Shown: piece by piece, positions 3,170 through 6,898 of the stretch
Layout of the letters: every line of letters starts with the position of its first letter
Numbering within the stretch: position 1 is the stretch's first letter
Source of the DNA: an uncultured Gammaproteobacteria bacterium
GTDB lineage: Bacteria; Patescibacteriota; Patescibacteriia; JAQUQO01
Assembly: GCA_964482065.1 (NCBI GenBank)
Contig: CAYZWC010000001.1
Location: 1-43,442, forward strand
DNA length: 43,442 nt
Direction: 5' to 3'
Made by a program: the position numbers and the translations under genes
Notes under the pieces: model-generated
Seen by the model: the letters and a program-made list of their open reading frames with translations, nothing else
Database searches by the model: none
Told to the model about the DNA's origin: nothing

Positions 3170-6100
3170 ATGGAAAAATACAATTTCAAGAAAATTGAGG
3201 CAAAATGGCAGAAAGAGTGGGAAGAAAAAGATTTGTATAAAGCGGACGATAAATCCAAAAAAGAAAAGTATTATTGCCTTGTAGAGTTTCCCTATCCTTC
3301 CGGCGAAGGGCTTCATGTCGGGCATCCGAGAAGCTACACCGCCATGGACATTATTTCGCGCAAGCGGAGAATGGAAGGATACAATGTACTCTATCCGATC
3401 GGCTGGGACGCTTTTGGCCTCCCTGCTGAAAACTATGCCATTAAAACCGGAATTCATCCGAGTGTGGCTACAAAAAAGAATATAGAAACATTTAGGCGCC
3501 AGCTCAAGTCGCTGGGCTTTTCTTTTGATTGGTCGCGCGAGGTAAATACCACCGATCCCGAGTATTACAAATGGACACAGTGGATGTTCCTGAAGTTTTT
3601 TGAACATGGAATGGCTTACAAAGACAAGATTGCCATCAATTGGTGCCCTAAAGATAAAATCGGCTTAGCTAATGAAGAAGTGGTGAATGGGAAATGCGAG
3701 CGCTGCGGAGCCCCGGTGGAGAAAAGAATGAAAGAGCAATGGATGATCGCCATTACCAAGTATGCCGAGCGTTTGCTTCGTGATTTGGAAACAGTTGATT
3801 ACCTTCCGCAGATCAAAGAGCAGCAAAAAAATTGGATTGGTAAGAGTGTTGGCGCTAAAATTAAATTCGAGATTGTTCCTGAAGGCGGAGGTGAAGAGAA
3901 AAATATTAATTTGTCAAAAAATGTCCAACACTCTTCGCGGACTGACGCGGACTTGACGCGGACTGACGCGGAAATAGACAATAATAAGCTTTTGTATAAA
4001 GATTTGACATATAAAATTAGGGGAGCGATTTTTACAATAAAAAAACAACTGGGGTTAGGACATAAAGAAGATGTTTATCATGAAGCCCTGGAAATTGAAT
4101 TTGCAAAAATCGGTTTATCATTCGAATCTAAAAAAAATATAGATGTAAAATATGATAATAAAAAAGTAGGTGTTTACCAGCCGGATTTTATTATAGAAGA
4201 CAAAGTTTTGATTGAATTAAAAGCGCTTCCTGAAATAGGAAAACCGCAACTAAATCAAACATGGACGTATTTAAAGGGAAACGATTATAAATTGGCTCTT
4301 TTGGTAAATTTTGGAAGCAAAGAATTACAAATTAAAAGAATGGTTTATGAGACGGCGCGCAATGTTCCGCGAGAGTCCGCGTCTGTTCAGCAATATTCCG
4401 CGACCTCGGTAGAGGTATTTACTACTCGTCCGGGTACTTTATTCGGCGCGACATATATGGTGCTTGCTCCTGAACATGAATTATTAAAGAATCATGAATT
4501 AAGAATTACGAATTATGAAGAGGTTGAGAAATACATTAAGCAAGCTAGTAAAAAATCCGATTTAGAACGTTCCGAATTACAGAAGGAGAAAACGGGCATA
4601 GAACTTAAAGGCGTCAAAGCTATTAATCCCGCCACCAAAGAAGAGATTCCGATTTGGGTGGCTGACTATGTTCTCGCTTCCTATGGCACCGGAGCGATTA
4701 TGGCCGTGCCCGCTCATGATGAGAGGGATTTTGAATTTGCTAAGAAATATAATTTACCGATAAAACATGTAGTTGAGCCAGAGTATTCAATTTTAGATAT
4801 AAGCGAAGTTCTTTTTGTAGTTGCTACTAAATATGGAGAAGGTATTAAAACATTAAAATATCAGTATAGTATTATAAAAAAGGGCCAAGAAACCAGAACT
4901 TTTTGTTTTGTTGGAGAAGGGACTAATATTAATTCTGATTTTATTAATGGTTTAAAAACTTCAGAAGCAAAAGAGAAAATAATTAATTGGCTAGAAAAGG
5001 AAAAAATCGGCAAACGCGAAGTTAATTATAAACTGCGCGATTGGGTTTTTTCACGCCAGAGATATTGGGGGGAACCGATTCCTTTGGTTCATTGTGATAA
5101 ATGTGCGACAAAAAAGCCTAAGTTTCTTTTTCTCCACGGTTTTAAGGGAACATCAAGGGGAGATTTTTGGCTTTGGCTAAAAGAAGAGTTGGAGAAAAAA
5201 GGTTTTGAAGTCCGGGTTCCCGATTTGCCAAATACAAATGAACCAAATTTGGAAGAGCAAATGAAGTTTGTGTTGGATAATTTTAAAATTGATGAAAACA
5301 CCATAGTTATCACTCATAGCTTAGGTGGAGTTCTGGCAATGGAGTTGTTTGGGCAGGGCAAAGCAAAAGCGCAAAAATTAATTATGGTTGCTCCTCCGCT
5401 AAAAACCGAATTTAAAGATGGCAAGGATCGCCCGGCCTTGAATCGTTATTGCGATTGGAAGTTTAATTTTTCAAAAATTAAAAAACAGGTCGGCGAGATA
5501 AAAGTTATTTTGGACAAGGAAGATGATTGTGTTTCACCGTATCAACCGAGAGAGATTGCAGAAAAGCTGGGAGCTGAACTTATAGAAACAGTTGCTCACT
5601 CCCCGCATTTTAATTGTCCGCAAGCGCCGGCTGTTTTGGATAGTATTTTAACTAGCGATGTCCTAAATCCCGGCTGGGTATCTGTGCCGGAGAAGGATTT
5701 GCCGGTGAAATTGCCGGAGGTCAAAAAATACGAACCGACCGATACCGGAGAATCTCCGCTTGCCAATGTTTCCGATTGGGTCAATACCAAATGTCCTAAG
5801 TGCGGCGGACCGGCCAAACGGGAAACTGACACCATGCCAAACTGGGCGGGGTCTTCCTGGTATTTCCTGCGCTATACCGATCCCGAGAATAACAAAGAAT
5901 TTGCTGACGAGAAAAAATTAAAATACTGGATGCCGGTTGATTGGTATAACGGCGGAATGGAGCACACCACACTGCATCTTTTGTATTCCAGATTTTGGTA
6001 TAAATTTTTATATGACATCGGCGAGATTCCGGAAGAGTGTGGCAATGAGCCGTACAAAAAGAGAACCTCTCAAGGTCTGATTCTCGGGGAGGGCGGAGAA

Positions 6101-6898
6101 AAGATGAGTAAGTCCCGCGGCAATGTGGTAAATCCTGATGAAATGGTAAAAGAATACGGCGCGGATTCCCTTCGTCTTTATGAAATGTTTATGGGACCCT
6201 TTGACCAGCATATTCCTTGGGATACTAATGGACTTATCGGCTGCCAAAGATTTTTAAATAAAGTTTGGAATCTGCAAGAAAAGGTGTGTGAGACGAAAGA
6301 AGATTGGGTGCCTTTAGTTGCAGTAAAATTTGATTCAGATTTAGAGCAAAGGCAAAATATTGCGATAAAAAAAGAGATAAATAATATAGAAAAATTACTA
6401 CACCAAACCATCAAAAAGGTTAGTGAGGATATTGAAGAAATGAAGTTTAATACAGCAATAGCACAGATGATGACCTTTATCAATAGCGGTTTTCCCTCCT
6501 TAGAAGAGTTAATAAATAGATACCCAGAATTAAAAAATCAATTAGTAGAACAAACATTAAATCAAATATTAGTATCTCAGTTTAAAAATTTTTTAATTCT
6601 TTTAGCTCCCTTCGCGCCGCATATTGCGGAAGAAATTTGGAGCAACCTCGGAAACAAGAAAAGTATTCATTTGGAAAAATGGCCGGATTATGACGAAAGT
6701 TTAATTAAAGAAGAAAAAATTAATTTGGTAGTTCAGATTAACGGCAAGCTGCGCGATACTATTAAAGTTGCGGCGGATATTTCCGAAGAGGAAGCGAAGA
6801 AACTGGCTATGGAATCGGAAAAGATTAAAAAGCATTTAACCGGCAAGCCGAAGAAAGTTATTTTTGTGCCGGGCAAGCTAGTTAACATTGTTATTTAA
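3170..6898 (+). CDS. leuS: leucine--tRNA ligase carrying two large in-frame foreign domain insertions
   Basis: HIGH motif (HVGHPRSY), KMSKS motif (KMSKSRGN), first zinc knuckle (CPKD...CERCG), CP1/editing motifs (FTTRPGTLFGATY, AVPAHDERDFEFA), RDWVFSRQRYWGEPIP, and second zinc knuckle halves HCDKC and KCPKCGG. It encodes 1242 aa, against about 800-880 aa for ordinary bacterial LeuRS. Confidence 0.97.
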   Translation: MEKYNFKKIEAKWQKEWEEKDLYKADDKSKKEKYYCLVEFPYPSGEGLHVGHPRSYTAMDIISRKRRMEGYNVLYPIGWDAFGLPAENYAIKTGIHPSVATKKNIETFRRQLKSLGFSFDWSREVNTTDPEYYKWTQWMFLKFFEHGMAYKDKIAINWCPKDKIGLANEEVVNGKCERCGAPVEKRMKEQWMIAITKYAERLLRDLETVDYLPQIKEQQKNWIGKSVGAKIKFEIVPEGGGEEKNINLSKNVQHSSRTDADLTRTDAEIDNNKLLYKDLTYKIRGAIFTIKKQLGLGHKEDVYHEALEIEFAKIGLSFESKKNIDVKYDNKKVGVYQPDFIIEDKVLIELKALPEIGKPQLNQTWTYLKGNDYKLALLVNFGSKELQIKRMVYETARNVPRESASVQQYSATSVEVFTTRPGTLFGATYMVLAPEHELLKNHELRITNYEEVEKYIKQASKKSDLERSELQKEKTGIELKGVKAINPATKEEIPIWVADYVLASYGTGAIMAVPAHDERDFEFAKKYNLPIKHVVEPEYSILDISEVLFVVATKYGEGIKTLKYQYSIIKKGQETRTFCFVGEGTNINSDFINGLKTSEAKEKIINWLEKEKIGKREVNYKLRDWVFSRQRYWGEPIPLVHCDKCATKKPKFLFLHGFKGTSRGDFWLWLKEELEKKGFEVRVPDLPNTNEPNLEEQMKFVLDNFKIDENTIVITHSLGGVLAMELFGQGKAKAQKLIMVAPPLKTEFKDGKDRPALNRYCDWKFNFSKIKKQVGEIKVILDKEDDCVSPYQPREIAEKLGAELIETVAHSPHFNCPQAPAVLDSILTSDVLNPGWVSVPEKDLPVKLPEVKKYEPTDTGESPLANVSDWVNTKCPKCGGPAKRETDTMPNWAGSSWYFLRYTDPENNKEFADEKKLKYWMPVDWYNGGMEHTTLHLLYSRFWYKFLYDIGEIPEECGNEPYKKRTSQGLILGEGGEKMSKSRGNVVNPDEMVKEYGADSLRLYEMFMGPFDQHIPWDTNGLIGCQRFLNKVWNLQEKVCETKEDWVPLVAVKFDSDLEQRQNIAIKKEINNIEKLLHQTIKKVSEDIEEMKFNTAIAQMMTFINSGFPSLEELINRYPELKNQLVEQTLNQILVSQFKNFLILLAPFAPHIAEEIWSNLGNKKSIHLEKWPDYDESLIKEEKINLVVQINGKLRDTIKVAADISEEEAKKLAMESEKIKKHLTGKPKKVIFVPGKLVNIVI
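3934..3972 (+). repeat. left boundary repeat cluster: four tandem copies of a 10-11-nt unit (G/T)(A/T)CGCGGA(CT)
   Basis: Read directly from the sequence: ttcgcggact gacgcggactt gacgcggact gacgcgga. CGCGGA starts at 3936, 3946, 3957 and 3967. This is a GC-rich island in AT-rich coding DNA. Confidence 0.9.
4366..4402 (+). repeat. right boundary repeat cluster: three copies of TCCGCG, inverted relative to the left cluster
   Basis: TCCGCG occurs at 4366, 4376 and 4397. agtccgcgtc (4374-4383) is the perfect reverse complement of gacgcggact (3944-3953 and 3955-3964). Confidence 0.9.
5105..5671 (+). other. alpha/beta serine-hydrolase domain (YdeN/RBBP9-like) inserted in-frame in the second zinc knuckle of LeuRS
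   Basis: 189 codons lie between HCDKC and GWVSVPEKDLPVKLPE...KCPKCGG. They include KFLFLHGF (strand plus oxyanion region), the nucleophile elbow ITHSLGG (Ser codon 5318-5320), ILDKEDDCV (candidate acid) and AHSPHF (candidate His). Domain size matches the small single-domain serine hydrolases. Confidence 0.65.

Follow-up and report, generated by a model that had tools for sequence, protein, structure and literature searches.

How a complete nuclease domain comes to lie in frame within a leucyl-tRNA synthetase (LeuRS), between clusters of short inverted repeats, is the question raised by the leuS gene of contig CAYZWC010000001.1 (assembly GCA_964482065.1; 43,442 nucleotides, hereafter the window), deposited as an uncultured Gammaproteobacteria bacterium and placed by GTDB within the Patescibacteriota. 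The insert covers 174 codons (positions 3884-4405), in frame with leuS, and carries a nuclease of the GxxExxY / PD-(D/E)XK type. We consider it probable that it belongs to a mobile cassette that encodes its own nuclease, is translated with its host and does not splice, a reading in which mobility and mechanism are what we infer from sequence comparisons. The cassette extends from about nucleotide 3925 to 4411, and its layout comprises, in order, a junction hairpin, four phased A-CGC-R-GA units, a core of 369 nt, three to four inverted units and a second junction hairpin. The features of the locus are the following.

3170-6898, plus strand: leuS, a single uninterrupted open reading frame (ORF) of 1242 amino acids encoding a bacterial-type leucyl-tRNA synthetase, with HVGH (HIGH-type) and KMSKS in its translation.
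3842-3852, plus strand: outer arm of the left junction hairpin, AAGAGTGTTGG, made of the host codons K-S-V-G of the conserved NWIGKSxG and complementary to the inner arm at 11 of 11 positions.
3884-3924, plus strand: variable hydrophilic linker beginning with GGGEEKNINLSKN, which is the loop of the left hairpin and differs in length among LeuRS copies.
3925-3935, plus strand: inner arm of the left hairpin, CCAACACTCTT, an inverted copy of the host codons that directly abuts the first array unit.
3935-3973, plus strand: left array, four direct units (A/T)CGCGGA at 3936, 3946, 3957 and 3967 (spacing 10, 11 and 10 nt), read as S-R-T-D-A-D-L-T-R-T-D-A-E.
3974-3991, plus strand: short linker IDNNK leading from the array to the nuclease core, with no ATG and no Shine-Dalgarno sequence.
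3992-4360, plus strand: GxxExxY / PD-(D/E)XK nuclease core, 123 codons (369 nt), with GLGHKEDVY at 4055-4081, the D of PDF at 4187-4189 and E-L-K at 4217-4225.
4365-4403, plus strand: right array, inverted units TCCGCG at 4366, 4376 and 4397 plus a degenerate TCAGCA at 4387, read as P-R-E-S-A-S-V-Q-Q-Y-S-A.
4403-4416, plus strand: right junction hairpin, ACCTC (4403-4407), GGTA and GAGGT (4412-4416), the GAGGT arm being the host codons V-E-V.

The identity of the host gene is clear from profile searches, in which its product matches the bacterial LeuRS equivalog TIGR00396 with 994 bits (cutoff 548) and contains the LeuRS editing domain PF13603 (E 4.5e-57). Ordinary bacterial LeuRS have about 800 to 880 residues. 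When the window protein is aligned with Thermus thermophilus LeuRS (1h3n/2v0c), its residues 1-235 pair with residues 1-236 and its residues 413-537 with residues 242-364, leaving about 177 residues where the T. thermophilus enzyme has five; what is replaced is a beta-hairpin turn of five to six residues at the start of the CP1 editing domain. The turn that has been replaced lies between the strand ending '…AEILFPV' and the CP1-opening strand 'RIPVFTTRPDT', and LeuRS relatives without the insert carry just 'KNSKLK' or 'KSEKLKVD' at this site. The original prediction, made from the letters of the window and a list of its ORFs, had described 174 in-frame codons in place of the short linker of ordinary LeuRS, and both sets of alignments bear this out. 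It had also described an AT-rich insert between GC-rich islands, in agreement with the GC contents that we find (25-33% in the core, 41-56% in the flanking islands). The residues at the junctions (FEI/VPEGG on the left, SATS/VEVF on the right) differ from copy to copy, and the linkers of the window insert include the stretch SRTDADLTRTDAE.

The insert matches PF13366 (PDDEXK_3) over model positions 1-116 of 117 with 109.7 bits (cutoff 22; E 1.4e-31) and TIGR04256 (GxxExxY protein) over positions 1-116 of 116 with 116 bits (cutoff 35; E 1.2e-33). These full-length matches, together with the motifs GHKEDVY, PDF and ELK from which the nuclease had first been recognized, indicate that it is a bona fide member of the GxxExxY / PDDEXK_3 family, whose function was given as unknown in a 2012 survey of the superfamily (PMC3424549). 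The catalytic signature E..PD..ExK is invariant in the 31 embedded cores checked, and the core measures exactly 369 nt in every embedded copy. Between the window and its nearest relative (P0002/L033, whose LeuRS is 77% identical by BLASTP), the core has a ratio of nonsynonymous to synonymous divergence (dN/dS) of 0.09 with a proportion of synonymous differences (pS) of 0.30, indicating that the nuclease is under strong purifying selection. The insert had been likened to a whole free-standing protein. This holds for the length of the domain, but no embedded copy has a start codon of its own, so that the nuclease is produced only within the host protein and the module is the domain of a free-standing protein rather than a separate gene.

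Structure prediction informs on the fold of the module rather than on whether it projects from the CP1 surface, as had been asked. A stand-alone AlphaFold2 (AF2) model of the nuclease domain has a predicted confidence (pLDDT) above 90 in the core; the rest of the insert, including the translated arrays, is of low confidence and predicted to be disordered, as expected for flexible linkers. In the AF2 model of LeuRS residues 1-640, by contrast, the insert stays below a pLDDT of 50, with few alignment rows covering it, and the orientation of its domain is therefore uninformative. Foldseek matched the core model to PD-(D/E)XK nucleases throughout (3syy, 4ic1, MGME1, Hjc and EndA), with TM-scores of only about 0.4. 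The nearest solved folds are those of Cas4, lambda-exonuclease-like enzymes, MGME1, Hjc and EndA. The weak matches include splicing endonucleases, and a sequence search found no solved structure related to the core.

An in-frame, nuclease-bearing insert beside conserved motifs of housekeeping proteins, with a patchy distribution, also recalls an intein, which would be spliced from the LeuRS protein after translation. We regard this as highly improbable: neither Pfam nor NCBIfam detects a Hint/intein domain, the variable junctions have no N-terminal Cys, Ser or Thr and no C-terminal His-Asn followed by a nucleophile, and the insert outside the nuclease is predicted to be disordered. In the absence of a Hint splicing domain and of splice-junction residues, the insert should stay in the protein.

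A more trivial explanation would be a chimera or another assembly artefact in a metagenome-assembled contig. The assembly is indeed of the metagenome type, and the cluster to which the window protein belongs has a single member. However, at least nine independent LeuRS, obtained from different samples and with different assemblers, have the same insert at the same codon, the ORF is continuous, and the insert diverges coherently, as evolution would have it; the chance of an artefact is practically negligible. These insert-bearing LeuRS belong to at least two subclades, and closely related LeuRS do without the segment. The window LeuRS shares 69-72% identity with five LeuRS that have no insert, but only 58-62% with insert-bearing LeuRS of another subclade.

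The short repeats that frame the core lie exactly where they had been noticed, and the degenerate fourth unit of the right array is added here. On either strand, CGCGGA occurs 22 times in the window, with seven copies within 470 nt around the insert. The longer word GACGCGGACT is present at 3944 and 3955 and its exact inverse at 4374-4383, and there are no further perfect copies in the window, in agreement with the perfect inverted match described originally. Across copies, the conserved unit is A-CGC-R-GA-(A/C)-T, direct at the left flank and inverted at the right. Exactly four units are present in 33 of 41 arrays, and the spacing is 10 nt in 59% and 11 nt in 26% of cases (10-11 nt in 85%), which is close to one turn of B-DNA. 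None of the frames of the unit has a stop codon; its left copies are translated as T-(Q/R)-N or D-A-E and its right copies as P-R or S-A-S, which explains the conserved peptides 'SxTxAxxTQNxAE … SASxxRxSATS' of the LeuRS alignment. In 245 kb of sequence, clusters of the unit are almost confined to the neighbourhood of cores rather than being common elsewhere. Further CGCGGA-flanked copies, for which the original prediction had proposed to look, are absent from the 43 kb window: tblastn with the insert found no second cassette and a motif scan no additional CGCRGA cluster.

The arms 3935-3973 and 4365-4403 are 74% complementary, and a long stem between the arrays was considered as a candidate structure; it was rejected, the spacers not being complementary beyond chance (42% for paired left and right spacers versus 39 ± 4% with shuffled partners). 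Since the unit sequence is conserved and the spacers are not complementary, the arrays resemble reiterated protein-binding sites rather than a selected long stem, and the complementarity of the arms is a by-product of the shared unit.

The cassette is not restricted to LeuRS. A scan of one genome per species gave 30 loci and a metagenome scan 31 more. The embedded copies available as DNA number 41 (about 33 of them distinct), with 37 found by ORF-independent tblastn and four taken from annotated proteins (window, L033, L035 and L036), and all 41 are in frame through both junctions. Their hosts are LeuRS, LepA/EF4-type GTPases (insertion between switch I and DTPGH), RecG (between DEQH and SATPIPRT), GatB, DHFR and a GT2 glycosyltransferase. 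Moreover, a family search among 1.84 billion cluster representatives returned 7,453 members at E up to 1e-3, and the majority of the 60 best matches lie within long proteins. Pfam analysis of 20 of those proteins added GT4/GT1 glycosyltransferases, RtcB, an O-antigen ligase (Wzy_C), transketolase, asparagine synthase and a P-type ATPase, bringing the host protein families to at least 12. The known insertion sites are beta-hairpin turns or inter-motif loops beside highly conserved sequence, which fits both structural tolerance and the conserved recognition or homology that homing would require.

Two further kinds of relatives were identified. Core-less elements, with left array, right array and hairpins, are inserted in frame at second sites in LeuRS (L002) and LepA (L010 and L012). 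Free-standing GxxExxY genes encoding proteins of 124-170 amino acids are present in Patescibacteria, Omnitrophota and other lineages, with inverted arrays on both sides; their array units are lineage-specific (CGCTGAT, CACGAAT or GCGGAT). Such covariation of unit and protein would be expected if the protein recognizes the unit, and the nuclease thus probably binds the units that flank it.

The two junction hairpins of the window are formed by host codons and their inverted copies, and they recur with compensated changes in other LeuRS: the left hairpin of L002 contains the compensated pair AAAAGTGTTGG/CCAACACTTTT, and other LeuRS copies have the covarying right pair ACTTC/GAAGT. Exact inverted repeats of 9 nt or longer border the array directly at 10 of 19 left junctions and at 5 of 19 on the right, compared with 0.6% at random positions, and several more right hairpins lie 6-9 nt off the array. 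In LepA, the inner arm mirrors the synonymous codons of each individual copy, and all four versions of the L-N-L codons that were seen are mirrored; the insert-side peptide 'INQVE' is 'LNLID' read backwards for this reason. In the LepA alignment 98% of the cells pair, double changes occur in three pairs and none of 500 shuffles reaches the observed score. Left hairpins were also found in the GatB and RecG copies.

Such hairpins could in principle act in the transcript. According to an RNA-level explanation, which the original prediction had raised as a long stem that is excised, the insert would be an intervening sequence whose transcript forms a three-way junction, is cut by RNase III or by the encoded nuclease (in the manner of the tRNA splicing endonuclease, which has a PD-(D/E)XK fold) and is religated, for example by RtcB. 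The minimum free energy fold of 3830-4432 is exactly such a three-way junction (z = -2.6), the hairpins covary, and splicing endonucleases are among the weak fold matches of the core. However, the z-score is modest, and the part of the fold that had been predicted as a long array stem pairs via the shared unit alone. Mismatches of the A.C type are as frequent in the hairpins as G.T, so that nothing in them is RNA-specific and no wobble signature is apparent. Every one of the 41 DNA copies keeps the frame and is free of stops through linkers, arrays and core, which splicing would not demand. Rfam gave no match to an intron or any other family at the gathering threshold in the window; within 3700-4600, at E up to 1, it gave just one chance-level match of 16.6 bits, and no tRNA features were found in the window. 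We therefore consider RNA excision improbable. The module of family member P0250 lies within the RNA ligase RtcB itself, an observation relevant just to this disfavoured idea.

The history of the cassette was compared with that of its hosts. In a neighbour-joining tree, the embedded cores form one clade apart from the free-standing ones, and LeuRS and LepA cores interleave; the P0045 core, with its signature PEIGKPQ, groups with the window core, whereas its host does not group with the window host. Nearly all pairs have a higher amino-acid identity in the core than in the host. At synonymous sites most pairs are saturated, and the informative ones are window/L033 and perhaps L037/L042. In the first of these, pS is 0.30 in the core and about 0.71 in the host, and one tract stands out.

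3830-4420, plus strand: tract of low divergence from L033/P0002, coinciding with the cassette and both junction hairpins.

Among codons for identical amino acids, 16% differ inside this tract and 45.5% outside it (twice the log-likelihood difference, 2dLL, 40). This synonymous-codon analysis was used instead of a single-segment change-point analysis on all nucleotides, which picked just the most conserved part of the core. Since the tract equals the cassette plus both hairpins, it has the pattern that homing or gene conversion with co-converted flanks would produce.

The same data bear on the possibility that the insert is a domesticated accessory domain, i.e., a nuclease of benefit to the host (for example in nucleic-acid surveillance or repair) that was fused into several proteins long ago and is inherited vertically, the repeats being low-complexity DNA that codes for linkers. 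The invariant catalytic residues and low dN/dS, the greater conservation of the core compared with its hosts, the saturation of most pairs, the low copy number, the L016/L017 pair, which is congruent with vertical descent, and a search of viral contigs in which no relatives were found all agree with it. But selection on the protein cannot explain why the left and right linkers are encoded by reverse complements of one DNA unit at helical spacing, and neither the core-less arrays, nor the same inverted arrays in non-coding DNA around free-standing genes, nor hairpins copied from host codons are accounted for. The hosts, moreover, are functionally unrelated, number more than twelve and have no common need for a nuclease, the closest LeuRS relatives manage without the insert, and the tract 3830-4420 misfits simple vertical descent. 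Domestication is in our view unlikely, though it deserves more weight than the other alternatives considered here.

Several observations nevertheless weigh against a mobile cassette. Catalytic residues kept over long periods could also reflect a benefit of the domain to the host. In most pairs of copies, synonymous sites are saturated to the same degree as those of the hosts, which fits long vertical inheritance. Saturation in the AT-rich core is reached at about 0.45, compared with 0.62 in the host, and the lower codon diversity of the core inflates the similarity somewhat. The core tree was built by neighbour joining from 123 residues, without bootstrapping or support values. The copy number is low: the 43 kb window has a single cassette and each genome in the scan of species representatives a single locus. 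No mobility event was seen directly. The DHFR and GT2 copies have weak hairpins or none, as do the RecG and GatB copies at their right side. Direct target-site duplications were not found: the longest direct word shared by the two flanks of a copy averages 4.7 nt, compared with 4.9 nt for mismatched flanks. Finally, binding of the repeat units by the nuclease is something that we infer. In the JGI metagenomes, no relative of the window core exceeds 73% identity, so that a recent jump to another gene could not be caught. Taken together, the comparisons indicate that the history of the cassette is one of long residence with occasional lateral replacement, not of rapid proliferation.

We propose the following scenario for the mobile cassette. 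It would have colonised, in frame, a solvent-exposed beta-hairpin turn where CP1 leaves the catalytic body of LeuRS, and would be transcribed and translated within LeuRS, with the arrays forming hydrophilic, disordered linkers and the nuclease an independently folded domain that projects from the CP1 hinge. The nuclease would bind the units flanking its own coding sequence, which lie one helical turn apart, usually four per end, with a lineage-specific motif. Cleavage could then aid spread: either empty alleles would be filled by homing or gene conversion, or the cassette would occasionally transpose to new sites, and core-less copies may be mobilised in trans. Only in-frame insertions in tolerant loops would survive, and once in an essential gene the cassette would be hard to lose. 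The palindromes at the junctions may have one of two origins. They could be joining scars, formed when a broken 3' end of host DNA folds back and copies a few of its own bases before it switches over to the element; alternative end joining offers an analogue in its snap-back templated insertions. Alternatively, they could be part of a structure that is recognized or required, kept perfect by selection or by quasipalindrome template-switch correction. The original proposal of a mobile in-frame insertion bounded by terminal inverted repeats is thus favoured as to mobility and frame by the insert-less relatives, the unrelated hosts, the core-less derivatives and the near-confinement of the unit clusters to such modules, and it is refined as to its boundaries, which are phased arrays of 7-nt units, with additional host-codon hairpins, rather than plain terminal inverted repeats. 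None of the three results named in advance as fatal to this proposal was obtained.

The window LeuRS has other peculiarities. The near-invariant editing-domain motif TTRPDT directly downstream of the insert is TTRPGT here (4421-4438, residues 418-423), the D being conserved in at least 90% of the LeuRS alignment. A second in-frame insert at 5108-5668 (residues about 647-833), between 'PLVHCDKCA' and 'NPGWVSVPEKDLP', encodes a Ser_hydrolase / alpha-beta hydrolase domain (PF06821, E 2.7e-9), with no flanking repeat arrays on reading the sequence. Many LeuRS of the candidate phyla radiation (CPR) have Ser_hydrolase, NUDIX, Ham1 or nucleotidyltransferase domains at the equivalent or other sites.

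The hinge site occupied by the cassette in the window harbours unrelated elements in other LeuRS. In P0010 (L034, 1245-1330), a different in-frame palindromic mini-element has the terminal repeats GTCATTGCGAG / CTCGCAATGAC and is read 'VIASGAKQSHDKGIAASSLDGTPRND'; a similar peptide lies inside RecG of L018, and none is present in the window. In P0052 (L068, about 960-2140), a 370-amino-acid in-frame insert combines an alpha/beta hydrolase with a DUF559 (Vsr-like endonuclease) module, and its ends are G/C-rich palindromes read 'NPSPALPEGEG' and 'ALSFGEGLGGVFGEGLGG'. A second nuclease family seems to share both lifestyle and site.

Variants of the GxxExxY elements were also noted. Solo A-CGC-R-GA arrays in a single orientation, with neither partner nor core, are present at L002 3965-3986, at L004 1855-1886 and at a second site of L036, in frame in LeuRS and a glycosyltransferase. 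The left array of P0121, an N-terminal LepA fragment with the insert, is much enlarged, with about nine units, and many family matches of about 255-275 amino acids consist of two tandem GxxExxY domains. In the LepA protein of L037, six tandem copies of 'VLQPGSGQ' lie in the GTPase domain (residues about 330-380), a repeat expansion tolerated in a CPR housekeeping protein.

A full-text literature search turned up neither in-frame GxxExxY cassettes nor their unit arrays nor junction palindromes made from host codons, in agreement with the original impression that the arrangement is undescribed. Selfish in-frame insertions are already known, and we see a substantial chance that the cassette represents a new class of mobile element. 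More tentatively, with odds that we would put a little short of even, GxxExxY cassettes in general could be an unrecognised class of autonomous mobile elements living in protein-coding genes, in which the passenger nuclease recognizes the phased 7-nt units at the ends and drives homing or transposition, and joining leaves inverted (snap-back) copies of the host flanks. If so, an orphan family that comprises more than 7,000 sequence clusters would gain a function, and many unexplained 'extra domains' in essential and housekeeping proteins of Patescibacteria (CPR) would be accounted for. The cassette would give this large nuclease family a testable function and a likely DNA site, A-CGC-R-GA at helical spacing. 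Known selfish inserts in bacterial proteins are inteins, which splice out, and Rickettsia palindromic elements, which encode nothing; a retained, nuclease-encoding cassette would be a third lifestyle. The insertion sites in LeuRS, LepA, RecG, GatB and other proteins also provide natural maps of positions permissive for domain insertion, and the junction palindromes from host codons are an unusual and unexplained mechanistic signature. An annotation problem should be flagged as well, since P0121 and similar insert-bearing LepA fragments are publicly named 'GxxExxY protein, partial'.

Among known systems, the Rickettsia palindromic elements (RPEs), reportedly described by Ogata and colleagues in 2000, are similar in architecture only: they are inverted-repeat DNA inserted in frame in protein-coding, often essential, genes, translated and tolerated in surface loops, and the core-less copies found here are about the size of RPEs. 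However, RPEs carry neither an enzyme gene nor phased unit arrays and are not known outside Rickettsia, whereas the cassette has an 'autonomous', nuclease-carrying form, inverted host-codon copies at its junctions and hosts in Patescibacteria. REPIN/RAYT systems consist of doublets of repetitive extragenic palindromic (REP) sequences with a REP-associated tyrosine transposase (RAYT). They share with the cassette a nuclease gene flanked by inverted copies of a short repeat thought to be its target, enzyme-less hairpin derivatives elsewhere, and covariation of repeat and enzyme by lineage. But RAYT is an HUH/Y1 enzyme and that of the cassette is PD-(D/E)XK, the sole domain found in the insert, and REPINs are extragenic and of high copy number, whereas the cassettes are intragenic, in frame and of low copy number.

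Inteins with homing endonucleases are likewise selfish, in-frame, nuclease-encoding inserts with a patchy distribution beside conserved motifs of housekeeping proteins, and the low-divergence tract of the cassette, which includes its flanks, resembles their co-conversion; the cassette has no Hint domain or splice-junction residues and possesses DNA-level repeat arrays, which are not known from inteins. Free-standing GxxExxY proteins match the cassette in their domain from end to end, in its catalytic motifs and in the inverted arrays that surround the ORF, but the window copy is an internal domain of LeuRS without its own start or stop, and embedded copies form a separate clade. I-Ssp6803I, TnsA of Tn7 and Rpn/PDDEXK_2 proteins are small PD-(D/E)XK enzymes that drive the mobility of DNA elements. 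They have no sequence relationship to the core beyond the fold, and they are found in introns or multi-gene transposons instead of within host proteins.

Classical transposons with terminal inverted repeats and miniature inverted-repeat transposable elements also have inverted termini, although those of the cassette are repeated units rather than a unique sequence. Like them, the cassette exists in multiple dispersed copies, including the putatively non-autonomous core-less ones, but it shows inverted copies of the host flanks in place of direct target-site duplications. Coding palindromes, i.e., perfect inverted repeats with both arms translated in functional genes, have been described in mitochondrial genes of Nematomorpha (PMC6649704); these are much longer, carry no cargo gene and no repeat arrays, and belong to another biological setting. 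The cassette therefore resembles a functional hybrid of RPE, REPIN/RAYT and intein traits that belongs to none of these groups.

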